Origin: Bacteroidales bacterium
GTDB taxonomy: Bacteria; Bacteroidota; Bacteroidia; Bacteroidales; JBGRPZ01
NCBI GenBank assembly: GCA_041725955.1
Contig: JBGRQE010000006.1
Location: 37,593-101,592, forward strand
Reading direction: 5' to 3'
Length of the DNA stretch: 64,000 nt
Part shown: positions 21,279 through 46,602 of the stretch, in pieces
How the letters are laid out: each line of letters starts with the position of its first letter
Numbering within the stretch: position 1 is the stretch's first letter
The notes under the pieces: model-generated
What the model was told of the DNA's origin: nothing
The model's input: the letters and a program-made list of their open reading frames with translations, nothing else
Databases searched by the model: none
Translations under genes and position numbers: made by a program

Positions 21279-21459
21279 GTACTTACTATTTTATATTTAC
21301 TATTTAAGAAATATTATTTTTTCTCTCTGTTTATTGCCAGCTGTTTAGATTGTACCAATATCCTGTAGTTTTGAATTATTAAAAATAGATATAAGGGTTT
21401 TGTATTGTGGTATAGTTTTTGAATATTTGAAGGGAAATCAGTTTAAAAAAGTTTATTTT

Positions 21460-23676
21460 ATGAAGAAAGTTCTATTGTTGGTTTCTGCCTTGATGATGGT
21501 TTTTCAGACCTATGGTCAAGATAGAACAAAGTATGGTGTTCGTCTTATTCAAGCATCAGAAAATTTAGTACGTGCTGATAAAAGCAAAGATATTCAAGTT
21601 TTTATTTATGGAGATATTCCTGCTGTTGAGAACTTGGTGAAAGAAGTTGGGGGTGAAATTAATACTGTTTCAAAAGATATATTAACTGCTCAATTGAATT
21701 TTGAAGCGATTGAAAAAATCGCTGTGTCGGAATCTGTAAAATATATTCGTTTAGGTTCAGATCTAGAACTTGCCAGTGATAAAGCTTTAGGGCATGTTTT
21801 TGCCAATCAAGTGCATTCAGGTCTTGCTCCTCTTGAGCAGGCGTATACAGGTAAGAATGTAATTGTAGGAATTATTGACACTGGAATTGATTATAATCAT
21901 TCCGATTTTCGCAAAAAGGATGACGCTTCCAAGTCGCGTGTATTGTATATTTGGGATCAACTTAATTCTTATGGAGGAGAGAATCCAGAAGGTTTCAATT
22001 ATGGGTCTGAATGGAATCAAGAACAAATTGAGAACTCTATAGACCAAGAGAAACCTGACGTTAGCCACTTCGACACTGAAGGACACGGAACTCATGTAAC
22101 TGGAATTGCTGCAGGTAATAGGGGAATAGCTCCTGAGGCAGATATAATTATGGTTAAGGCTAGTTTAACCGGATCTACAGGTATTGTTGATGCTGCAAAA
22201 TATATTTATGCCAAAGCTGAAGAATTAGGAAGACCTTGTGTAATTAATGCGAGCTTGGGCGTTTTTATGGTCCCTCATGATGGTACCGACCCAAATGCAG
22301 TAATGGTTGATGAAATGGTTAAGGAAAAACCGGGAAGAGCATTTGTTTCCAGTGCAGGTAATTTTAAAGGAAATAATATGCACGCACATATTGTGGTAAA
22401 AAAAGATTCTCCTGTTTATACCTGGAATTGTCCTGTGCCAACTTATAGTGGAAATATAAGTATTTTTAATGGTGTGGTTAATAACTCTGATCTTGATAAT
22501 TTATCCATGTCTTTTGGCTTGGATACTATAAAATATGATGAAGCTCTTGATGCTCCAATACCTGTTAAACTTGTAGATAAATTAGATTATTTTAGTTTAA
22601 AAGATGTAAAAGAACAAGGAGGAACAAAACAATTAATTTTGAAATATACTGATGAATCTAATGCTGCTAGTGTATTATTTTTTCTTTCAGATTTGGATGA
22701 AAACAGATCTGCATTTCAAATACAAATAGTTCAAAAATTTAAACCAGAGCAATCGAACTTTGGAATGGGTTTTATTCGTACTTACTTTAAAGGTGAAGCC
22801 GAATTAAATACTTGGTGTTTGGCGGGTTTGAATTTTACGGATGAGGCAATTGAAGATTTAAAGGATAAGAATATTACTATTGAAGAGGGCTTTATTTCTG
22901 GGGATGAAAACTCGACAGTGACTTCTCCTGCAACAGGAAAAGAAATTATAGGTGTAGGTGCTTATATTAACCGTGATCAATGGGAAAATAGTTTAGGAGA
23001 GATAGCAAAGACAAAAAAAGAGGAAGTAGTGGGTGATATGGCTCCTTTTTCATGTCAGGGACCAACTATTGATAATAGAATTAAACCAGAGATTTGTGCG
23101 CCAGGAATGTATGTAATGTCTTCCCTTTCCAGCAAATTTAATACTGCTCCGTTTGCTAATGAGATGAATAAAGATAAAACCCGTATTGTTATGAGTGGAA
23201 CATCTATGTCGGGTCCTGTAGTAGCTGGTGCTGTTGCTTTAATGCTTGAGCAAAATCCAAATCTTACCAATAAAGAAATTAGAGATAAGCTATTTTCAAG
23301 TACATTAACTGATAATTTTACAGGTGAGTTAGCTGAGCCTAATAATACCTGGGGATATGGAAAATTAGATATCTTCAAAACTCTTTCTGGTATAAGAGTT
23401 GGTGTAAACGAGGTTGTTATTGATAACGCCAATTCTATTCTTGTAGAATCACTTTATCCAAACCCAGCAAAAGGTGAAGTTAATGTTGTTCTTAAAAAAG
23501 AATTTACTGGTAAATTGAGTGTGTATAATGCACAAGGAATTATTTTGTATCAAAAAGATATACAAAGTTTTTCTAATAACTGTAAAATAAAGACTGACGA
23601 TTTTGCTGCCGGAGTTTATATGCTCAACGTAAAAGGGGAAAATAACTCTGAGATATTGAAATTTATAAAAAAATAG
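21460..23676 (+). CDS. Subtilisin-like serine protease (peptidase S8) with T9SS C-terminal sorting domain; paralog of 568..2742
   Basis: The triad motifs are VGIIDTGIDYNH, HGTHVTGIAAGN and SGTSMSGPVVAG. The C-terminus reads SLYPNPAKGEVNVVL...GVYMLNV. I prefer the ATG at 21460 (MKKVLLL signal) over the track's TTG. Confidence 0.9.
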   Translation: MKKVLLLVSALMMVFQTYGQDRTKYGVRLIQASENLVRADKSKDIQVFIYGDIPAVENLVKEVGGEINTVSKDILTAQLNFEAIEKIAVSESVKYIRLGSDLELASDKALGHVFANQVHSGLAPLEQAYTGKNVIVGIIDTGIDYNHSDFRKKDDASKSRVLYIWDQLNSYGGENPEGFNYGSEWNQEQIENSIDQEKPDVSHFDTEGHGTHVTGIAAGNRGIAPEADIIMVKASLTGSTGIVDAAKYIYAKAEELGRPCVINASLGVFMVPHDGTDPNAVMVDEMVKEKPGRAFVSSAGNFKGNNMHAHIVVKKDSPVYTWNCPVPTYSGNISIFNGVVNNSDLDNLSMSFGLDTIKYDEALDAPIPVKLVDKLDYFSLKDVKEQGGTKQLILKYTDESNAASVLFFLSDLDENRSAFQIQIVQKFKPEQSNFGMGFIRTYFKGEAELNTWCLAGLNFTDEAIEDLKDKNITIEEGFISGDENSTVTSPATGKEIIGVGAYINRDQWENSLGEIAKTKKEEVVGDMAPFSCQGPTIDNRIKPEICAPGMYVMSSLSSKFNTAPFANEMNKDKTRIVMSGTSMSGPVVAGAVALMLEQNPNLTNKEIRDKLFSSTLTDNFTGELAEPNNTWGYGKLDIFKTLSGIRVGVNEVVIDNANSILVESLYPNPAKGEVNVVLKKEFTGKLSVYNAQGIILYQKDIQSFSNNCKIKTDDFAAGVYMLNVKGENNSEILKFIKK

Positions 23677-37206: not shown

Positions 37207-38160
37207 TTATTGCAAGTATTCTTGGGGTTCAAATCCAAAGGTTTGTTTAAATAATTTCGAGAATTCTTCTATAGATTTATACCCCAAAAGCTTTGCTGTT
37301 TCTTCTATAGATTTTTTCTTGTTGAAATAGCTTAAAGCTTTGTCCATTCTAGTTTTTATAACAAACTGACTAATTGTATTTCCATAGAGTTCGAAGATTA
37401 GAAGTTTTAGCCTATCTAAAAAAATGCCTGTTTTTTCAGCAACATATTCATCTGTATAGTAAATCTTAGGATTATGTTTGATTTCGTTTTGCATATTAAG
37501 TAGTGCTTTTGCTTCTTCTTCTTTAAGGTAGATTTCAGTGTTTTTTTCTAATGAATTAAAGAAAAGAGAGCATAACTCAATTGCTTTACCATATGCATAT
37601 TGCTTTCTAAAGTCTCCTTCCTCAAAAGAAATCATAACATCTGTCAAAATCTTTATTATCTCTTTTGAAGGCTCTTGATGAAAAAGAAATGAATCTAATG
37701 CCATTAAAGAATACAAGTACTGCTTTTCTTTAAATTCAAAAAATTTTTTTGCAAAGGTTTTTGTAAACAAAAGGCAAAATTGAAAGTAAATTTCGTTGGG
37801 AGGGATAATCACAGTTCTCTTATAATTTGCAGTTCCAAAGTATCCTCCACATTTTAATTTTGAAGTAAACGTAGCCTTGCCTCTTTGTTCGGATAGAGTA
37901 ACATTTCTGGGCAGATAAAAATCCAGAGATAAGAGATCGTCATTATCAGTTCCTATTCTAACCAATAATGATTCATAGTTTGTATTTGAACATAAAAAAG
38001 AAAGGCTAAAGTTTTCGGGATAGTCATAAACTTCAATATGTAATTTTCCCAGCGATTCAGGCATGTCGAAAGTATGCCCCAGCCATGGTGCTCCAACCAT
38101 TCTGGCAAATTCGGAAGCTACTTCGATGTAGTTGTTTAGTTTATATCTGTATACAATCAT
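37207..38160 (-). CDS. AraC-family transcriptional regulator (paralog A)
   Basis: It has a C-terminal AraC HTH (LLGYKSIEEFSKLFKQTFGFEPQEY) and an uncharacterised N-terminal domain of about 200 aa. Confidence 0.8.
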   Translation of the reverse strand: MIVYRYKLNNYIEVASEFARMVGAPWLGHTFDMPESLGKLHIEVYDYPENFSLSFLCSNTNYESLLVRIGTDNDDLLSLDFYLPRNVTLSEQRGKATFTSKLKCGGYFGTANYKRTVIIPPNEIYFQFCLLFTKTFAKKFFEFKEKQYLYSLMALDSFLFHQEPSKEIIKILTDVMISFEEGDFRKQYAYGKAIELCSLFFNSLEKNTEIYLKEEEAKALLNMQNEIKHNPKIYYTDEYVAEKTGIFLDRLKLLIFELYGNTISQFVIKTRMDKALSYFNKKKSIEETAKLLGYKSIEEFSKLFKQTFGFEPQEYLQ

Positions 38161-38361: not shown

Positions 38362-39333
38362 TTAGGCAGATAAATTACCTTTTTGATATTCACTAGGTAA
38401 AAAACCAAATGTTTGTTTAAAAGCTTTGGAAAAGTGACTTAAGTTAGAGTATCCAATAAGGTATCCGGTTTCACTTACCGTTTTTCCTTCGCTAAGGAAA
38501 GACATGGCTTTATCCATTTTTAACTTCTTTACGAATTGCCCAATGCTGCTTCCATAGAGTTCGTTTAGGAGTATTTTTAAGCGGTAATGTGATAAACCTG
38601 TTTTCGCTAAAATATATGGGATTGTAAATTCTTTTGCAGGATTATGAAGAATTTCTTTTTGGAGTTCATAAAGTAATGCAGCTTCATAATCGCTAAGATG
38701 AATTTCGGGGCATTGTTCTAATGAGTCAAAAAACAAAGTAGCAAGTTCAAGGGCTTTTGCATAAGCAAATTGTTTTCTGTAATGATTCTCGTCAAATGAT
38801 AGCATAATGTTGGTTAAAACATTAATAAGCTCGCGTGAAGGAGGTTGATAAATAAAAAAACGATCTAAATTCATTAAAGACTGAAGGGTTTTACTTTTAT
38901 TTGGTGAAAGTTCAAAAAACCTCTTTAAGAATGTTCTGCTTAATATAATATTAAATTGAAAAAAGTTTTCTTTGGCAGGTATCTTAATTGTCGATTTATA
39001 ATTCGAAGTGCCAAAGTAGCCCCCATACTTTAATTTGCTAAAGCCTTCTTCTCCTTCTTCAATAGATAGTTTTACATCTTTGGGAATATAAAAATCTAAG
39101 GTAAGTAAGTCTTCATTGTCAGTACCTGTACGAACAAGGTTTGATTCATAGTTCATAAATGAACTAAGGAAGGAAACACTAAAGTTATCTTCATAATTAT
39201 ACACTTCTATATGTAGCTTTCCTAGTGTCTCTGGCATTTCAAAATAATGTCCATGCCAGGGAACATTAATCATTTTTGCAAAGCCCGAGGCACAACTTAT
39301 GTAGTCATTTACTATGTAACGATAGACAATCAT
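38362..39333 (-). CDS. AraC-family transcriptional regulator (paralog B)
   Basis: It has the same architecture as 37207..38160 and shares MIVYRY, GKLHIEVY, LVRxGTDNxDLLxLDFY and FKQTFGF. Confidence 0.8.
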   Translation of the reverse strand: MIVYRYIVNDYISCASGFAKMINVPWHGHYFEMPETLGKLHIEVYNYEDNFSVSFLSSFMNYESNLVRTGTDNEDLLTLDFYIPKDVKLSIEEGEEGFSKLKYGGYFGTSNYKSTIKIPAKENFFQFNIILSRTFLKRFFELSPNKSKTLQSLMNLDRFFIYQPPSRELINVLTNIMLSFDENHYRKQFAYAKALELATLFFDSLEQCPEIHLSDYEAALLYELQKEILHNPAKEFTIPYILAKTGLSHYRLKILLNELYGSSIGQFVKKLKMDKAMSFLSEGKTVSETGYLIGYSNLSHFSKAFKQTFGFLPSEYQKGNLSA

Positions 39334-39574: not shown

Positions 39575-40381
39575 ATGAATAAGAAAGGATATCTTCTAGT
39601 ACTAATATTGCTAATAATCTTACCTTTTACAATCATTTCTCAGAAAGACAGAAATGATGATGTATATGACTATGCCTGGACTATTGGAGAAGAGCTTACT
39701 TATAGGGTTTATTACCAATCTTTAATTACAGGACAAGTAACTGCAGGAGAAGCAGTGCTTAGTGTAACTGAAAAAAACAAACTTTTTGAAGGACGCTCTA
39801 CTTATAATATTGTTGGTACAGGAAAATCAAAAGGTGCATTTAATTTCTTTTATAAAGTAAGAGATCGTTTTGAGTCGTATGTTGACAGAGAAACTTTGGT
39901 GCCATATCTTTTTATTCGACGTACACGTGAGGGGAGCTATAGGAAAGATGATGATGTATACTTCAATCAAAAAAAGAATACTGCAAAAAGTAGAGATACT
40001 TTGATGAAGGTTCCTGAAAATATTCACGATTTTGTTTCTGCACTTTATTATGCCAGAACTGTTGATTTAGACTCTGTAATAAAAAATCAGGGATTTAAAA
40101 TTGATTTCTTTCTTGACGATAGCACTTATTATTCATGGGTTAAATATGAGGGGCGAGAAACAATCCGAACAAAACTGGGTACTTTTAAGTGTCTTAAACT
40201 TGCTCCAATGGCTGCTACAGGTAAGGTGTTTTCTGAAAAATATCCTATGCATATCTGGGTGACGGATGATGAAAATAGAGTTCCTGTTCTTGCCGCATCA
40301 GCAGTAATAGTGGGCAGTGTTAGAATGGAACTTAAAGATTATAAAGGCTTAAAATATCCTATGAGTGCGAAACTAGAATGA
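39575..40381 (+). CDS. Hypothetical secreted protein (DUF3108-like by recall)
   Basis: It has a signal peptide, is 268 aa and appears beta-rich. The family assignment is from memory only. Confidence 0.45.
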   Translation: MNKKGYLLVLILLIILPFTIISQKDRNDDVYDYAWTIGEELTYRVYYQSLITGQVTAGEAVLSVTEKNKLFEGRSTYNIVGTGKSKGAFNFFYKVRDRFESYVDRETLVPYLFIRRTREGSYRKDDDVYFNQKKNTAKSRDTLMKVPENIHDFVSALYYARTVDLDSVIKNQGFKIDFFLDDSTYYSWVKYEGRETIRTKLGTFKCLKLAPMAATGKVFSEKYPMHIWVTDDENRVPVLAASAVIVGSVRMELKDYKGLKYPMSAKLE

Positions 40382-40474
40382 CCAATATTGTGTTTTGGGC
40401 TTTTTCCTGAATATAGAGAATGTATGTAAGGTGATTTTTTTACTCTTTAAGATTACTATTATCAGAGGATATGA

Positions 40475-40508
40475 AAAATGCTGTAAGAACTTTATCCTAC
40501 AGCATTTT
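40475..40508. terminator. Bidirectional hairpin between the DUF3108-like gene and the first peptide gene
   Basis: An 11-bp stem, AAAATGCTGTA / TACAGCATTTT, with a 12-nt loop. T-rich sequence follows on both strands. Confidence 0.6.
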
Positions 40509-40554
40509 ATAATCTTTTAAAATCCTTTTTGGGACTAAACAAAATAACTTTACG

Positions 40555-40731
40555 TTATTTGGAACAACCAGGAATCAATGTAGCTAAACATGTAATCCCT
40601 ACTCCAAGTAGACTAATTTCTATCCAACAAGGATGTCCGCTACGTTCATTACCATTCATATTGTTAAACTTTAAAGAAGATATATTTTCTTTTCTTAAGC
40701 AAAGTTTGTTTTTTAGGTCTTTAGTTTTCAT
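40555..40731 (-). CDS. Unannotated 58-aa peptide: leader-like N-terminus plus hydrophobic Cys-containing C-terminal half (copy 1)
   Basis: Hand translation gives MKTKDLKNKLCLRKENISSLKFNNMNGNERSGHPCWIEISLLGVGITCLATLIPGCSK. It is exactly 59 codons from ATG to TAA, and copy 2 is a paralog. Thirteen synonymous differences fall at conserved residues, which argues that this frame is under selection. Confidence 0.7.
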   Translation of the reverse strand: MKTKDLKNKLCLRKENISSLKFNNMNGNERSGHPCWIEISLLGVGITCLATLIPGCSK

Positions 40732-40839
40732 AGTTTTAGTTTTTTAAACGAGTTTGTTTTTTTAGGTCCGAAAAGTTTTTACTATTCTCAATTACAATTA
40801 TTATAACTAATTGATTACATATCAAATTATCGCATAATG

Positions 40840-41016
40840 TTATTCGGTGCAATGAGGTAATAATGAGGCTAAACATGTAACTCCTACTCCAAGGAGACTC
40901 ATTTCTACCCAACAATCTTCACCAGTACGTCCTATACAATTCTTATTATTTCTATTAAGAGAAGATACATTCTCTTTTCTTAGACAAAGCTTGTCTGAGA
41001 GGTTTTTAGTTTTCAT
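40840..41016 (-). CDS. Unannotated 58-aa peptide, paralog of 40555..40731 (copy 2)
   Basis: Hand translation gives MKTKNLSDKLCLRKENVSSLNRNNKNCIGRTGEDCWVEMSLLGVGVTCLASLLPHCTE. It is 37/58 identical to copy 1. The roughly 45-nt 5' leader region is also conserved (CGRACCTAAAAAA..AAACTCGTTTAAAAAACTAAAACTATG). Confidence 0.7.
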   Translation of the reverse strand: MKTKNLSDKLCLRKENVSSLNRNNKNCIGRTGEDCWVEMSLLGVGVTCLASLLPHCTE

Positions 41017-41418
41017 AGTTTTAGTTTTTTAAACGAGTTTAGTTTTTTAGGTTCGGAAGGCTATTGTTATTTTTAAGCATAAGTATTTCGACTAAATGCA
41101 TTAAAGCATATTCCTTACCAATAAAGGAAAATGGCGCAATGCATTAAGTGTAATAATATCTTTAAATTACTACCAGCCTAGTGTAATTCTAAGTTTATTA
41201 TTCTTTCCTTTTACGTTAAAGATTAGATAATTAATAACGTATTTCTAGTTAGGTTTTATTGTGTACGTATTTTATCCTGCACTGTTGTACAGGATTAACT
41301 TATTTAACCCTACGGGCATTTTTATACTATAGGTTTTATGTGAGTTATTCATTTTGCAGTGGTATAATGCATTAGCTTTTGCTAAAATTCAATCGGAGCT
41401 TATCGTATTTTATAGTAC

Positions 41419-41447
41419 AAAAAAAAGCTGCCTTTTTTTGACAGCTC
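41419..41447 (-). terminator. Rho-independent terminator after the lipoprotein operon
   Basis: The minus strand reads GAGCTGTC aaaaaaa GGCAGCTT, followed by T6, starting 15 nt after the stop at 41462. Confidence 0.65.
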
Positions 41448-41461
41448 ATTATCTTTTTTAA

Positions 41462-41989
41462 TCAAATTCCACAAAAGATTCCATCTTTGTTAAACTTAAC
41501 ACTCCCTTCTTTTTCAAGCTTTTCTTTGTAGTTTATATACTTATCTAATAAGTCTGATTTGAAGCAAGATTCTAGAGAGTCCTTACTGAAAACTTTTACA
41601 TTCTTTACAATTCCATTTTTTAATTCAAAAAAGTTAACAGCTCCAAAATCATAGTCATAGCTTTCGAATACCCCATTTTTGTCTAAAATTGTTTGAATAT
41701 GTTGCTTAAGGTTTGATGGAATATTTAATGGTTTCCCATGAATCAAGCATAGCTTTTTGTCTTCTTGTATATAATGGTCTAAAGCGTTTGTAAACGACTG
41801 GACACAACCCAAGCAAGTCAATGTCGGAATAACAATTAATAGTTTTTGAGGTTCTTTAATTTGCTCTTCTCCAATTTCTTCAAGATAAAGTTTTACCAGC
41901 TTGGTTTCATAAGAGTATGGATTTTCTTCTTTGCATGAAATACAAAAGGCAAAAGCCATTATTATGCTGTAAATTATCTTTCTATTCAT
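41462..41989 (-). CDS. Predicted lipoprotein with a CxxC motif (thioredoxin-fold-like)
   Basis: It has a lipobox (AFAFCISC). The CxxC motif sits in a beta-strand-then-helix context (LLIVIPTLTCLGCVQSF) like that of redoxins. It is 175 aa and overlaps the upstream gene by 8 nt. Confidence 0.55.
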   Translation of the reverse strand: MNRKIIYSIIMAFAFCISCKEENPYSYETKLVKLYLEEIGEEQIKEPQKLLIVIPTLTCLGCVQSFTNALDHYIQEDKKLCLIHGKPLNIPSNLKQHIQTILDKNGVFESYDYDFGAVNFFELKNGIVKNVKVFSKDSLESCFKSDLLDKYINYKEKLEKEGSVKFNKDGIFCGI

Positions 41990-43163
41990 TATTGTTTATT
42001 GAATATAAGGTAAAAAGAAATGAGCTATTTTCTATACGTTCTCCAATCCAAATTCCTTTCTTTTCAGGAAGGACATAATGGTATCTCGCTTTTACAAAGG
42101 GATCATATTTATTTTCAAAAATTAAATTAAAATTATTATCATAAACTAGAAAATACTGATTTTTAGAATATTCATCTTTTAATGTTTTAGAGTTTTTTGT
42201 GACTTTGGTTTCTCCTCTAAATGTCCGAAAATATATATTACGATGTTTATCATAGATAAATGATTCATATTTTCTTTCTTTTTTTAAATATGGTATCATG
42301 GTAAATATTTCAGAAGTATTAAATTCATCTGATATTCCAATGAAATCTTTTTTCGGATTTTGAATTCCACAGTAATGCTGAGTTTTAAGCTTTCCTTCTT
42401 TATATATAAAAATGCTATCGTTCTTTTCAAAGCTTACACAAAGTTCATTATCATTATTTATACAAAGTTCAAAAGTTGTTTTGTAAAATCTTTTTTGTTT
42501 GTATATTTCAGGATAATAGATGTTTAACATTTCTATGGGGCATACCTTATCACAATTGACTTTAATGCCAAAACCATTTTGAAAATATTTTTCTCTTATT
42601 TTTTTGGAATTGAAAGTACTTATCATATTAGTATGGAAGAAAGAATACCCATTTTTTTCTGTAACAGGTTGTTCAGAAAATTTAATCCAATGCATTGGTT
42701 CAATATTGGAAAGGGTGTTTAAACTTTTTTGTAGTTTGCCATTGTCTGAGTAAAATTGTAGAATCCTCGGGTTATCTTTGTAGAAAGGCTGTAAATTAAT
42801 GACATACCCTTTGTTTTCTAACCAAGAAAAGTATGCTCGATATTCTTGAATATTTAATGAATCTGGGAAAATTGTAGGATAGGATATTTCTGTTGTATTT
42901 TTACTTATTAAGTCAATTTTTTTAATGTACACAATTTTTTTTTCCTCATCGAATGCCGCAAAGCGAAGGGTGTCATTGTGAATGACAGATTTTAAAAATG
43001 ATGTGTATCTCGATTTAAGTTCAGTAAAATTTTTAAAATCTAGATTGATTTTGAATGATTCAATTGGATCAAAAAAATCTGAATAACGATTTCTCTTTTT
43101 AGAACAAGAATTTAATATTACTAACGATAACAATATTATTAAATAATATTTTTTATTCATCAT
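41982..43163 (-). CDS. Hypothetical AT-rich lipoprotein of about 393 aa (possibly a DUF4221 / 6-bladed beta-propeller-type Bacteroidota lipoprotein)
   Basis: It has a lipobox (LVILNSC) and a composition rich in F, Y, N and K. I prefer the ATG at 43163 or 43160 over the track's TTG at 43205. The family guess is from memory only. Confidence 0.55.
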   Translation of the reverse strand: MMNKKYYLIILLSLVILNSCSKKRNRYSDFFDPIESFKINLDFKNFTELKSRYTSFLKSVIHNDTLRFAAFDEEKKIVYIKKIDLISKNTTEISYPTIFPDSLNIQEYRAYFSWLENKGYVINLQPFYKDNPRILQFYSDNGKLQKSLNTLSNIEPMHWIKFSEQPVTEKNGYSFFHTNMISTFNSKKIREKYFQNGFGIKVNCDKVCPIEMLNIYYPEIYKQKRFYKTTFELCINNDNELCVSFEKNDSIFIYKEGKLKTQHYCGIQNPKKDFIGISDEFNTSEIFTMIPYLKKERKYESFIYDKHRNIYFRTFRGETKVTKNSKTLKDEYSKNQYFLVYDNNFNLIFENKYDPFVKARYHYVLPEKKGIWIGERIENSSFLFTLYSINNNE

Positions 43164-43242
43164 CAATTTTTTTAGTTGATGTATTATTGCATGAGAATGC
43201 AACAAACATTGCGAAAAACGAAAATAAGAATAGCTTTTTCAT
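43153..43242 (-). CDS. Possible 29-codon mini-ORF encoding only a lipoprotein signal peptide (or a remnant of one)
   Basis: Hand translation gives MKKLFLFSFFAMFVAFSCNNTSTKKIDDE, followed by a stop. It is out of frame with the start of the next gene and overlaps it. Confidence 0.25.
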   Translation of the reverse strand: MKKLFLFSFFAMFVAFSCNNTSTKKIDDE

Positions 43243-43572
43243 ACGAATTAAAATTTTGAATCTCTAATGTTGTTTGTTTTAAAGACTTTTGGTTATTTAT
43301 TATTTAGCATTACTGTAAATGCAACTTAATCTACTTTTTACTGTAGTTTTTACTTTTCTGCATATTACAATTAAGAATTTTAAAACTTTTTTGTCTTATT
43401 TCTTTGGCAAAAAAAATATAGGTTTGGTTTATGGTTATAATGTTGACCCTATTAATTAGTTGTAATTATAATAAAAAAAAACAATACGATAGTAAGATAT
43501 TGAAAAAAATTAACAGCATAGTTGTTTTGGTAATCCGCACAAGTATATAATAGAGAGGAAAGATAAGTAAAA

Positions 43573-43663
43573 CCTACAACATACCCCTGTCCTACACTGC
43601 AACATACCCTTGTCCCACGCTACGCATACCCCTGTCGTACACTACGACACACCCCCTGTCGTA
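43573..43663. repeat. Four tandem copies of a 22-24-bp unit (core ATACCCCTGTC)
   Basis: The core motif occurs at 43581, 43604 and 43626, with a variant at 43648. The array lies just beyond the leuS terminator hairpin. Confidence 0.85.
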
Positions 43664-43665
43664 AT

Positions 43666-43700
43666 AAATAAAAAAGGACTGCGAATAGATCACAGTCCTT
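43666..43700 (-). terminator. Rho-independent terminator of leuS
   Basis: The stem AAGGACTG / CAGTCCTT has an 11-nt loop, and TTTTTTATTTATT follows on the minus strand. It lies about 134 nt after the leuS stop. Confidence 0.6.
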
Positions 43701-43833
43701 TGTTACTTGTTTTGCAGGATTTGATTTTAGCTGACAGTAAATTCGTTTTCACAAACTCCTATACGAAGCTTTCTGCCATTTCGAGGAGTCAGTTATTAGC
43801 TCCTCTTCAATATTTTAGGATTATTCAGAAAAC

Positions 43834-46602
43834 TTAAATCACAACATTGATAATTCGTTTCGGAACAATAATTATTTTCTTTGGAGTTTTACCATCCAGA
43901 TATTTCTGAGCTCCTTCGGCAGACAGAACCGCTTTTTCCATTTCATCCTTAGCCATATCTAAAGGAAATTCAATTTTGAAACGCATCTTTCCGTTGAAGG
44001 AAACAGGATATTCAAATGAATTTTCTTTGGTATAGTCTTCAATATATTCAGGGAAAGAAGCTTCTACAATACTATCTTTATGTCCGAGAGCATTCCATAG
44101 TTCTTCACATAAGTGAGGAGCAAAGGCACTTAACATTACGGTAATTGGCTCAAGAATTTCTCTTTTGTTACACTTAAGGTCTGATAGTTCGTTTACACAA
44201 ATCATAAATCCACTAACAGCAGTGTTGAAAGAAAATCTTTCGTTATCGTCTTGAATCTTCTTGATGGTTTTATGAAGAACCTTTAGTTCATCTTTGCTTG
44301 CTGCTGCATCAGAAACTTCAAATTCGCCTTCTGCATTTTGGAATAATCTCCAGAACTTACGGATAAAGCGGAATACTCCTTCAATACCTTTGGTGTCCCA
44401 AGGCTTACTTTGCTCTAGCGGACCTAAGAACATTTCGTAAAGACGAAGGGTGTCGGCTCCATATTTTTCGATCAAATCGTCTGGATTTTGAACGTTGTAA
44501 TAGGATTTCGACATCTTCTCTACTTCCCAACCACAAAAGTACTTGCCATCTTCAAGAATAAATTCAGCATCCTTAAAATCGGGTCTCCATTGCCTAAAAC
44601 CTTCCTGATCTAGAATATCGTTATTAACCAATGCAATATCTACTCTGATTTCCTGAACGTCGTAGTCTTTTCTAAGGTTGTAAGAAACAAACTGATTGCT
44701 GCCTTTTATGCGGTATACAAAGCTTGTGCGACCTTGAATCATTCCTTGGTTAATTAACTTCTTGAATGGTTCGTCTTCGCAACAAACTCCCAAATCAAAT
44801 AGGAATTTATTCCAGAAGCGAGAGTAAATTAAATGACCAGTTGCGTGTTCTGCTCCTCCTATATAAAGGTCAACATTTCTCCAGTATCCGTTTGCTTCCT
44901 TAGAGAAATATTCATTCTGATTGCGAGGGTCCATATAGCGCAAGTAGTATCCACTCGATCCGGCAAAACCAGGCATGGTATTGGTTTCTATACGATATCC
45001 GTCTTCAGTAACCCAATTATTTGCACGAGCCAAAGGAGGTTCGCCAGTTTCGGTAGGAAGATATTTATCTACTTCAGGAAGCTCAAGCGGAAGCTTGCTT
45101 TCGTCCATCATATATGGGATATCATCTTTATAATATACAGGGAATGGTTCTCCCCAATATCTTTGACGACTGAAAATAGCATCGCGCAAACGATAGTTGA
45201 TTTTTCCTGATCCGATATCCTCTTTTTCGATACGCTCGATAACTGCTTCCTGACCTTCTTTGACTTTCATGCCTGTGATAAAGTCGGAATTTACAAGCAC
45301 ACCGTCTTTGGCTTCAAAAGCCTCTTCAGAGATGTCGCCACCAGAAACTACTTCTACAATAGGAATGTCGAAATGTTTAGCAAAGGCATAGTCTCTTGAA
45401 TCGTGTGCAGGAACAGCCATGATAGCACCAGTACCATATCCGGCAAGCACATACTCGGCAATCCAGATTGGAACTTTTGCACCATTTAGGGGATTGATAC
45501 CGTAGGATCCGGTGAATACGCCACTAATCTTTTTTACTTCAGTTTGACGTTCTCTTTCAGAACGATTCTTTGCCCATGCAACATACTCTTCCACTTGCTT
45601 ACGGTTTTCGTCGGTGGTAAGTTCGTTTACAAGGTCGTGCTCAGGGCAGATAACCATAAAGGTTGCACCAAAGATGGTGTCGGGACGGGTAGTAAAGATC
45701 TCTATTTTCTGCTCTTCATTGTCTTCAATAGGGAACCACATAGAAGCCCCTTTAGACTTTCCAATCCAGTTTTTCTGAATTTCCTTTAATGAGTCGGTCC
45801 ACTCTAGCTTGTCTAATCCAGAAAGTAAACGCTCAGCATAGGCAGTGATTCTTAGCGACCACTGGCGCATGGTTTTTCTTTCAACAGGATGACCTCCACG
45901 AACAGACAAGCCTTCTTTTACCTCATCGTTTGCAAGAACAGTTCCTAACTCAGGACACCAGTTTACCATAGTGTCGGAAAGGAATGCCAAGCGGTAATGC
46001 ATTAGATATTCTTGTTGTTCCTTTTCGTTTAGTGCTTTCCATTCTTCGGCACTAATTTCTGGAGTCTTGTCGTCTTTAGCAGCATTGATATTTGCAGAAC
46101 CTTCTTTTGCCAAGGTTTCTATAAGGGTTTCTATAGATTCTGCTTTTTGGGTTTCATTATTAAACCAATGGTTGAATAGTTTTATAAAAGTCCACTGAGT
46201 CCATTTATAGTATTCAGGGTCGCATGTTCTAACTTCACGATCCCAGTCATAAGAGAAACCAATATTATCTAGCTGCTGTCTGTAGCGTGTAATATTTTTA
46301 TTTGTAGTAACTTCAGGGTGAGTACCTGTTTGAATAGCATATTGCTCGGCAGGTAATCCGTATGCATCGTAGCCCATTGGATGCAGAACATTAAATCCCT
46401 TTGTACGTTTAAATCTTGAATAAATATCAGAAGCAATATAACCTAGCGGATGACCAACATGAAGACCTGCACCGGAAGGATAAGGGAACATGTCTAATAC
46501 ATAAAACTTTGGCTTATCAGAGTCTACTTCAACCTTATAGGTTTTGTTCTTTTGCCAATACTCCTGCCATTTTTTCTCGATTTCTTTGAAATTATACTCC
46601 AT
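43834..46602 (-). CDS. leuS: Leucine--tRNA ligase
   Basis: It is 922 aa with the HIGH-type motif ([14 protein letters not shown]), KMSKS ([10 protein letters not shown]) and a CP1 editing domain. Confidence 0.95.

Follow-up and report, generated by a model that had tools for sequence, protein, structure and literature searches.

Two tandem small genes in a Bacteroidales contig encode putative RiPP precursor peptides with a rare three-cysteine core

Do two very short open reading frames (ORFs), lying in tandem on the minus strand of a Bacteroidales contig, encode real peptides, and if so, peptides of what kind? The ORFs, designated copy A and copy B, lie within a 64,000-nucleotide stretch of contig JBGRQE010000006.1 (assembly GCA_041725955.1, positions 37,593 to 101,592), which is referred to throughout as the window and whose own numbering is used here. 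The original prediction, made from the letters of this stretch, proposed that the ORFs specify small cysteine-containing peptides with a leader-like N-terminus, such as bacteriocins, peptides that are ribosomally synthesized and then post-translationally modified (RiPPs), or signals. The analysis described here argues that both ORFs are genes, that their products begin with a leader of the Bacteroidota RiPP type and end with a core of very restricted distribution, and that these products may be precursors matured by enzymes whose genes lie in other parts of the genome.

Each ORF specifies 58 residues, and the two ATG starts are separated by 285 bp. The coordinates and translations that had been predicted are confirmed, as is the identity of the two peptides at 37 of 58 positions. 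The coding sequences differ at 44 positions, distributed 17/8/19 over the first, second, and third positions of the codon. Thirteen codons differ only synonymously (L6, K9, C11, L12, E15, L20, N23, G32, L41, G45, A50, L52, and C56), exactly those listed in the original prediction, while 21 codons carry replacements. The accompanying statement that most replacements are conservative went too far, since the count is 10 of the 21, about half; within the hydrophobic stretch from residue 36 to 54, all six are conservative. By the Nei-Gojobori method, dN is 0.245 and dS is 0.61, giving an omega of ~0.40, and the leader is better conserved than the core (dN of 0.19 versus 0.30). When 44 random substitutions were placed on copy A in 20,000 simulated runs, a mean of 29 residues stayed identical, and an open frame with at least 37 identities survived in 0.025% of the runs (p ~2.5e-4). 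The peptide frame is also the sole frame that is open in both copies; each of the other frames has stops in at least one of them. The repeat unit of the duplication is ~260 nt, and the DNA similarity ends immediately after the stop codons. A family hidden Markov model (HMM), run over the window's short ORFs that start with ATG (25-110 aa), found no third copy. Both copies are present in a large protein collection as predicted proteins P0001 and P0002; therefore, ordinary gene callers do call both ORFs. Taken together, these substitution patterns indicate that both ORFs are genuine genes, duplicated in tandem and held under purifying selection, and the omega value and the simulation bear out the earlier proposal that selection acts on this frame.

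A plus-strand ORF of 72 aa (40529..40747), which overlaps copy A and had been thought to mask one of the copies, was considered as a gene and rejected because the equivalent frame in copy B has two stops.

The repeats might instead be a duplicated non-coding or regulatory segment with accidental open frames. In favor of this are the shortness of the ORFs in an AT-rich genome, the absence of a canonical -7 box upstream, and a non-coding block before each gene that is more strongly conserved than the genes themselves: the 45 nt before the ATGs, whose conservation had been noticed in the original prediction, are 87% identical, with the last 24 nt the same in both copies, compared with 75% identity for the coding DNA. 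Nevertheless, this explanation is extremely unlikely, given the frame-specific pattern of substitution, the match of both products to a leader HMM, and the existence in another genome of full-length protein homologs that are alike in size and 33-52% identical.

What the peptides might be is suggested first by their N-termini. In NCBIfam, each peptide matches a single model, NF038153 (lant_leader_L1a, 'class I lanthipeptide'), which aligns with residues 1-24 of copy B (21.6 bits, E 1.8e-4) and residues 1-26 of copy A (18.9 bits, E 1.2e-3); a Pfam scan of both peptides gave no match. In many class I LanA precursors of Bacteroidetes, the FxLD leader motif is replaced by LxLxKx5L (Walker et al. 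2020, PMC7268733), and this motif is exact in both copies, where it reads L10-C-L12-R-K14-ENVSS-L20. The N-terminal 30 residues carry a net charge of +4 to +6. These comparisons support the assignment of the N-terminus as a Bacteroidota RiPP-type leader, in line with the original proposal. The boundary between leader and core was placed at residue 30/31 on the basis of a conserved junction, [RKG]/[ST]-G-x-x-C. At this point [ST]-G-x-x-C is conserved with a basic residue or Gly in front of it, which makes the suggested cleavage near G32 plausible. Leaders with the LxLxKx5L motif often end in Gly-Gly and have a C39 protease in the cluster (PMC7268733). As had been noted, neither copy contains Gly-Gly, and in the family alignment it is likewise absent from the five closest relatives.

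These relatives were found using a profile built from the two window peptides alone, which HMMER compared with 1.84 billion representative proteins. The search returned five other proteins (P0003 to P0007, E 2.5e-11 to 2e-4), and five further proteins came from a word-indexed search that used a wider alignment. P0003, P0004, P0005, P0006, and P0010 constitute a close group of 58-65 aa proteins that align over their full length at 33-52% identity, and all five come from one 'Bacteroidales bacterium' metagenome-assembled genome (MAG) with ACEPOW_ locus tags. The tags of P0005, P0003, and P0006 (ACEPOW_10780, _10785, and _10790) are consecutive, which points to three genes in tandem; P0004 and P0010 (ACEPOW_03775 and _03790) lie near each other. 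Against NF038153 these five relatives score 15-18 bits. The distant group, P0007 to P0009, P0011, and P0012, is assigned to PF28317 (Lant_leader_dom) in a precomputed table; the four that were scanned (P0007, P0008, P0009, and P0011) score 36-47 bits on NF038153, and the leader ends in Gly-Gly in all five. (On the contig of P0008, the gene after the two precursors encodes at least 398 aa and runs off the contig end.) Profile similarity thus connects the window peptides, without circularity, to accepted members of the leader family.

Beyond this small set, the core is hard to find. Copy B, used as the query of a word-indexed protein search, retrieved only itself, an alignment of the two copies found nothing in a genome collection, and an alignment of four sequences found nothing in metagenomes. 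A degenerate DNA pattern combining the leader start with the core motif matches the window exactly twice (0 expected by chance) and has 0 matches in 185,579 species-representative genomes and 0 in IMG/VR. The core motif [ST]GxxC-x4-S[ILV]xG-x4-C is known only from the source genome and the one MAG, i.e. from two genomes among ~15 billion predicted proteins. Judged by these searches, the core family is new and extremely rare.

The seven sequences of the close family (A, B, and the five MAG relatives) define which features of the core are constant. Invariant residues are M1, K9, L12, K14, E15, S18, G32, C35, S40, G43, C48, and C56; positions 31 and 51 are Ser or Thr in every member, and position 30 is R, K, or G. 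The original prediction counted four conserved cysteines. Three of these (C35, C48, and C56) are retained in the relatives, but C11 is replaced there by S, N, or I and was rejected as a functional cysteine. The full core motif is [ST]-G-x-x-C-x4-S-[ILV]-x-G-x4-C-x2-[ST]-x4-6-C, so that each conserved cysteine is preceded by a conserved hydroxyl residue, at spacings of i+4, i+8, and i+5 to i+7. Exactly three core cysteines are present in five of the seven members. Over the whole family the cysteines range from 3 to 6 and the sum of Ser and Thr from 5 to 11, and Ser plus Thr is at least equal to Cys in all seven. An AlphaFold model based on the family alignment has a pLDDT of 48 and gives no autonomous fold with confidence, which is in keeping with what a precursor peptide should show. 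The odd number of cysteines, together with one Ser/Thr partner for each, suggests thioether (lanthionine-like) rings rather than disulfides; the spacing of the Cys and Ser/Thr residues is compatible with (methyl)lanthionine rings, which is compatibility and not proof.

The same features bear on the proposal that A and B are unmodified secreted peptides, either class II bacteriocins or signals, stabilized by disulfides as in the bacteroidetocins. Such peptides would account for the cysteines, the hydrophobicity, the duplication, the leader-like N-terminus, and the lack of a modifying enzyme nearby. The analogy, which the original prediction had drawn, fits poorly with a core in which most members have three cysteines and each cysteine has an upstream Ser/Thr. 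In addition, the window lacks both a Gly-Gly site and a C39 transporter, the leader matches a RiPP leader model and not a bacteriocin model, and no predicted fold brings pairs of cysteines together with confidence. Disulfide-stabilized, unmodified products are consequently considered improbable.

With slightly better than even confidence, then, A and B are read as RiPP precursors in which the leader recruits a distant maturase and the cysteines become thioether-linked, lanthionine being the most likely linkage. Residues 1-30 would form a hydrophilic, basic LxLxKx5L leader, the type of handle that class I lanthipeptide enzymes recognize; a near-identical form is the recognition handle in TIGR04149-type radical S-adenosylmethionine (radical SAM) pathways. 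This leader would recruit a maturase whose gene lies elsewhere in the genome. Cys35, Cys48, and Cys56 would each be joined by a thioether to a partner, most likely Ser/Thr 31, 40, and 51 after dehydration, yielding a product with three lanthionine or methyllanthionine rings (i+4, i+8, and i+5). The leader would then be cut off after the conserved basic residue R30 and not at Gly-Gly, which would call for a protease that is not a C39 transporter. This protease, the modifying enzymes, and the exporter would all act in trans from genes outside the 64-kb window, and the product would be exported and act as an antimicrobial or a signal.

Several observations weigh against this proposal. First, neither LanB, LanC, LanM, a radical SAM/SPASM protein, YcaO, a C39 peptidase, nor an ABC exporter is encoded in the window, according to family scans in which the non-nested ORFs of at least 100 aa were compared with Pfam and the immediate neighbors also with NCBIfam. 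(The original prediction had listed LanB/C/M, radical SAM, and C39 transporter genes as missing from the window, and the scans agree.) Second, both leader scores fall under the curated NF038153 cut-off of 22 bits, a marginal miss, and the match ends at profile position 25-27 of 32, leaving the last 5-7 positions, the Gly-Gly end, unmatched. Third, LanB is reported absent from the surveyed Bacteroidales genomes, in which radical SAM loci are the most frequently identified (PMC10352776); because the nearest relatives of the contig are labelled Bacteroidales, the lanthipeptide reading has to be tempered. Fourth, several leaders of the same type score on TIGR04149 (18-27 bits versus a cut-off of 25), and consequently the leader alone does not fix whether the chemistry is that of LanBC or of radical SAM enzymes. 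Fifth, the sole relative with an enzyme-like neighbor, P0007 (locus L004), adjoins a 121-aa remnant with a weak match to radical SAM/SPASM proteins (E ~1e-3), not to LanB. Finally, the core is hydrophobic enough (maximum 19-residue Kyte-Doolittle mean of 1.4-2.2) to be a membrane segment.

The third, fourth, and fifth of these points favor an alternative in which the precursor is the same but its cross-links are made by a radical SAM/SPASM maturase, giving the Cys-to-carbon thioethers of sactipeptides and ranthipeptides or another radical SAM chemistry. In addition to the dominance of radical SAM enzymes and the absence of LanB among Bacteroidales (PMC10352776), relatives and stand-alone homologs score on TIGR04149, some of them over the cut-off, the remnant beside P0007 weakly resembles the maturases of PapB/GrrM type, and one metagenome precursor with this leader (locus L007) adjoins a TIGR03975 RiPP radical SAM C-methyltransferase. 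The window peptides themselves, however, have no match to TIGR04149 even at E values up to 10, and no radical SAM gene was found in the window. Moreover, the conserved Ser/Thr before every conserved cysteine fits lanthionine, whereas thioethers made by radical SAM enzymes need no such residue. Maturation by a radical SAM enzyme is thus judged possible but rather unlikely.

The hydrophobicity of the core is the basis for another alternative, in which A and B are small tail-anchored or membrane-inserted proteins with a basic cytoplasmic N-terminus and the likeness to RiPP leaders is convergent. Core hydropathy lies in the usual transmembrane range in five of the seven family members, the N-terminal charge given above is appropriately positive, and a membrane protein would need neither maturase nor exporter in the window. 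Yet the hydrophobic stretch is short (~17 residues), rich in Gly, Ser, Thr, and Cys, and broken by E38. Furthermore, the distant relatives P0007 to P0009, which have the same leader and alignable Cys, Trp, and Pro residues, have polar cores, and the match to the leader HMM is specific. A membrane protein is therefore decidedly unlikely.

Whether a precursor without a local maturation cluster is unusual can be judged from other leaders of this type. A metagenome scan with the Gly-Gly relatives yielded 12 loci having the same leader type, which are generic leader homologs and were used as a comparison set. The eight precursors that were scanned all pass NF038153, with scores of 37-46 bits. In five of the loci (L006, L008, L012, L014, and L015; L006 being 20 kb of a 223-kb contig), the flanks consist of housekeeping or unrelated genes, among them those for FAD oxidoreductases, a deoxynucleoside kinase, ketopantoate hydroxymethyltransferase, HPPK, TrkH, a VWA protein, and a sigma-54 two-component pair. 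L007 is the only metagenome locus in which a RiPP enzyme is adjacent. A stand-alone position is therefore ordinary for precursors of this leader class, and the original conclusion that the peptides fit no described cluster type was an overreach.

As a separate observation, the JGI loci L006, L008, L012, L014, L015, and L016 contain many Cys-rich Gly-Gly precursors that pass NF038153; these are arrayed in tandem, with as many as four copies in L014. Housekeeping genes flank them, no maturase occurs within the fetched context of these loci, and some of the precursors also pass TIGR04149.

Comparison with known systems places the peptides near, but not within, the described groups. Like the Bacteroidota class I lanthipeptide precursors defined by NF038153/PF28317, they start with MKTK... 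followed by K-L-x-L-x-K-E-x-[VI]-S-x-L, divide into a leader of ~30 and a core of ~28 residues with Cys and an excess of Ser/Thr, and are encoded by tandem, multi-copy genes in a Bacteroidota host. (Studied examples of the class are the pinensins and the PedA peptides of Pedobacter.) Unlike those precursors, they score just under the cut-off and lack the last 5-7 positions of the profile, Gly-Gly included; no LanB, LanC, or C39 gene is found within 23-40 kb of them, and their core motif is confined to the source genome and one MAG. With the precursors of TIGR04149 (GG-Bacteroidales), which are matured by radical SAM enzymes, they have in common a leader that is near-identical in relatives, short Cys-rich cores, and frequent multiple copies, but they have no TIGR04149 match, no Gly-Gly, and no radical SAM/SPASM maturase in the window. 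With the cut-off missed by a small margin, no Gly-Gly end, and neither LanB/LanC nor a radical SAM enzyme nearby, the window peptides resemble class I lanthipeptide or TIGR04149-type precursors but cannot be filed as members of either.

Two further systems are instructive. The prochlorosin-type precursors (Nif11 leader) resemble the window family in having a conserved leader and diverged cores, and they provide a precedent in which lanthipeptide precursors are scattered far from a single LanM and processed in trans (PMC7268733). They belong to a different phylum, leader family, and enzyme class, and trans-processing of the window peptides is a proposal. The bacteroidetocins are also small Cys-containing peptides of the same phylum, and the original prediction describes them as disulfide-containing. 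As unmodified class II bacteriocins of Bacteroidales, they have a Gly-Gly leader and a peptidase-containing ATP-binding cassette transporter (PCAT) (PMC10352776), whereas the window peptides have neither Gly-Gly nor PCAT and contain three core cysteines.

If the favored reading, RiPP precursors with thioether-linked cores, is correct, the locus would add a very rare core scaffold to the large and mostly uncharacterized pool of Bacteroidota RiPP precursors, and a leader variant without the Gly-Gly site would imply a different leader protease and export route. The peptides would offer a candidate new thioether product, and trans-acting maturation in Bacteroidota could be tested on them. The example also illustrates that precursor-centered mining finds peptides that are missed by cluster-centered tools (antiSMASH, BAGEL, and RODEO windows of +/-7 genes). 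To a specialist the finding is unsurprising and opens no long-standing question; it is a useful lead for RiPP mining.

Table 1. Positions and supporting evidence for the peptide genes, their inferred parts, and associated features in the window.
Feature	Position	Strand	Basis
Copy B, precursor gene, 58 aa + stop, MKTKNLSDKLCLRKENVSSLNRNNKNCIGRTGEDCWVEMSLLGVGVTCLASLLPHCTE	40840..41016	minus	ORF list; NF038153 match; profile-search relatives
Copy A, precursor gene, 58 aa + stop, MKTKDLKNKLCLRKENISSLKFNNMNGNERSGHPCWIEISLLGVGITCLATLIPGCSK	40555..40731	minus	ORF list; NF038153 match; paralog of B
Inferred leader of B, residues 1-30, L10-x-L12-x-K14-x5-L20	40927..41016	minus	HMM match extent; PMC7268733 motif; junction pattern
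Inferred leader of A, residues 1-30	40642..40731	minus	HMM match extent; family alignment
Inferred core of B, residues 31-58; pairs T31/C35, S40/C48, S51/C56; 3 Cys, 5 Ser+Thr	40843..40926	minus	Family alignment; composition
Inferred core of A, residues 31-58; pairs S31/C35, S40/C48, T51/C56	40558..40641	minus	Family alignment; composition
Conserved A-rich unstructured block upstream of B, with palindrome TAAACTCGTTTA	41017..41061	minus	DNA alignment; RNA fold
Matching conserved block upstream of A	40732..40776	minus	DNA alignment; RNA fold
Intrinsic-terminator-like hairpin + U-run, 52 nt after the stop of A	40473..40503	minus	RNA fold
Palindrome (T)AATGCATT, three copies, in the 445-bp spacer upstream of B	41095-41103, 41138-41146, 41365-41374	.	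Pattern count
DUF4221 lipoprotein gene, beta-propeller	41982-43205	same strand as peptides	Pfam E 2.4e-10
175-aa CxxC lipoprotein, CLGC at residues 59-62	41462-41989	minus	Lipoprotein signal

How the two genes might be expressed is suggested by the DNA around them (Table 1). The hairpin after copy A has a predicted stability of -17.9 kcal/mol (z = -7.3) and is followed by AUUUUUC, and RNA folding reveals no hairpin of comparable strength in the interval from B to A. It is therefore probable that the peptide genes are transcribed as a separate unit, which ends at this hairpin. No stable RNA fold is predicted for the conserved blocks upstream of the two genes, and there is no Rfam match in 40300-43900. 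The canonical Bacteroidota -7 box, TAnnTTTG, is not present upstream of either A or B, though it is common before other genes of the window, which may point to regulated or alternative-sigma transcription. A sigma-70-type promoter scan was also made, with a model that is uninformative for Bacteroidota. Within the spacer upstream of B, the 8-bp palindrome AATGCATT occurs (as TAATGCATT) in three copies, two of which are spaced 43 bp apart. Three of the four AATGCATT sites in the 64-kb window fall in this spacer, and the fourth is at 45995; ~2 would be expected per window. These palindromes may be candidate operator sites.

Both upstream blocks contain the palindrome TAAACTCGTTTA and also the arrangement CG(A/G)ACC-N15-CGTT, which resembles the -35/-10 elements of extracytoplasmic function (ECF) sigma factors.

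The rest of the window has the gene content of an ordinary Bacteroidota genome. It includes proteins with type IX secretion system (T9SS) tails, S8 subtilases, PBP2/RodA, leucyl-tRNA synthetase (LeuRS, located by tblastn in place of the family scans), GH3, C69 peptidases, two AraC paralogs, a major facilitator superfamily (MFS) transporter, and DUF3108. The nearest upstream neighbors of the peptide genes are those for the DUF4221 protein and the 175-aa CxxC lipoprotein, which form a two-gene operon with an 8-nt overlap. This operon is separated from copy B by a terminator-like hairpin (41447-41425) and a spacer of 445 bp.

The position of these genes can be compared with that in relatives. Three relatives (L001-L003; identity of 52-71% for DUF3108 and 67-80% for LeuRS) have LeuRS and DUF3108 directly side by side and in the same direction. 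In the window (39575-46602 compared), the genes for DUF4221, the CxxC protein, B, and A sit between the two, and DUF3108 is inverted. The inserted block is ~3.4 kb with a GC content of 24-30%, lower than that of its flanks. In the syntenic loci of L001-L003, neither the peptides nor DUF4221 nor the CxxC protein has a homolog, indicating that the block is accessory. Synteny beyond the LeuRS-DUF3108 pair is poor, and joint acquisition of the four-gene block is only suggested by these comparisons.

L001, one of the three relatives, is labelled Hyphomicrobiales but carries a Bacteroidota-like LeuRS with 80% identity, which suggests that it is a mislabelled or contaminated MAG.

It is conceivable that the peptides and the lipoprotein operon belong together as one acquired module, for instance for periplasmic oxidation or processing of an exported peptide. 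The four genes share one direction and are grouped between two genes that adjoin directly in the three relatives, and the GC content of the block is below that of the flanks. The 175-aa protein has a lipoprotein signal and a CLGC motif that, at low confidence, falls at a strand-helix junction as in thioredoxin folds. On the other hand, the terminator and the spacer intervene between operon and peptide genes, the 175-aa protein has no homolog in a word-indexed search, and homologs of DUF4221 or of the CxxC protein were found in none of the fetched loci of related peptides; the original prediction had proposed looking for co-occurrence with homologs of 41462..43163, and none was seen in any related-peptide locus examined. 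Since synteny around LeuRS-DUF3108 is otherwise poor, the co-location may be a coincidence. A shared module is thus very unlikely. An elaborated form of it, given the same low probability, would be a self-contained and undescribed module, gained as a single block between LeuRS and DUF3108, in which the peptides are not substrates of a distant LanBC or radical SAM enzyme; a peptide without Gly-Gly would be exported and afterwards matured or bound in the periplasm by the thioredoxin-like CxxC lipoprotein and the DUF4221 six-bladed propeller lipoprotein, and regulation would occur via AATGCATT and possibly the AraC paralogs.

Some properties of the lipoproteins can be described in their own right. 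The overlap of 8 nt couples translation of the 175-aa lipoprotein to that of the DUF4221 gene. A word search of 5.8 billion clusters gave no homolog of the 175-aa protein, and no sequence in the PDB matches it. A single-sequence AlphaFold model of it is unreliable (pLDDT 41); in this low-confidence prediction, the CLGC motif appears at a strand-helix junction, a thioredoxin-like layout. A literature search found no paper on DUF4221.

Upstream of the DUF4221 gene, the AT-rich intergenic region that separates it from the LeuRS terminator contains a GC-rich tandem repeat (43580-43660) with 3-4 copies of a 22-23 nt unit (GACAGGGGTATG...) and no Rfam match. Farther away, at 568-2742 and 21400-23676, the window encodes two S8 subtilases with T9SS C-terminal sorting domains. 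Subtilisin-like LanP enzymes cut class I lanthipeptide leaders off after basic residues; nothing ties the two window subtilases to the peptides. On the other side of the peptide locus, 1.2 kb from it and beyond DUF3108, the two AraC-family paralogs lie in tandem on the minus strand (37207-38160 and 38362-39333); they are 55% identical and have a non-canonical N-terminal domain in common.

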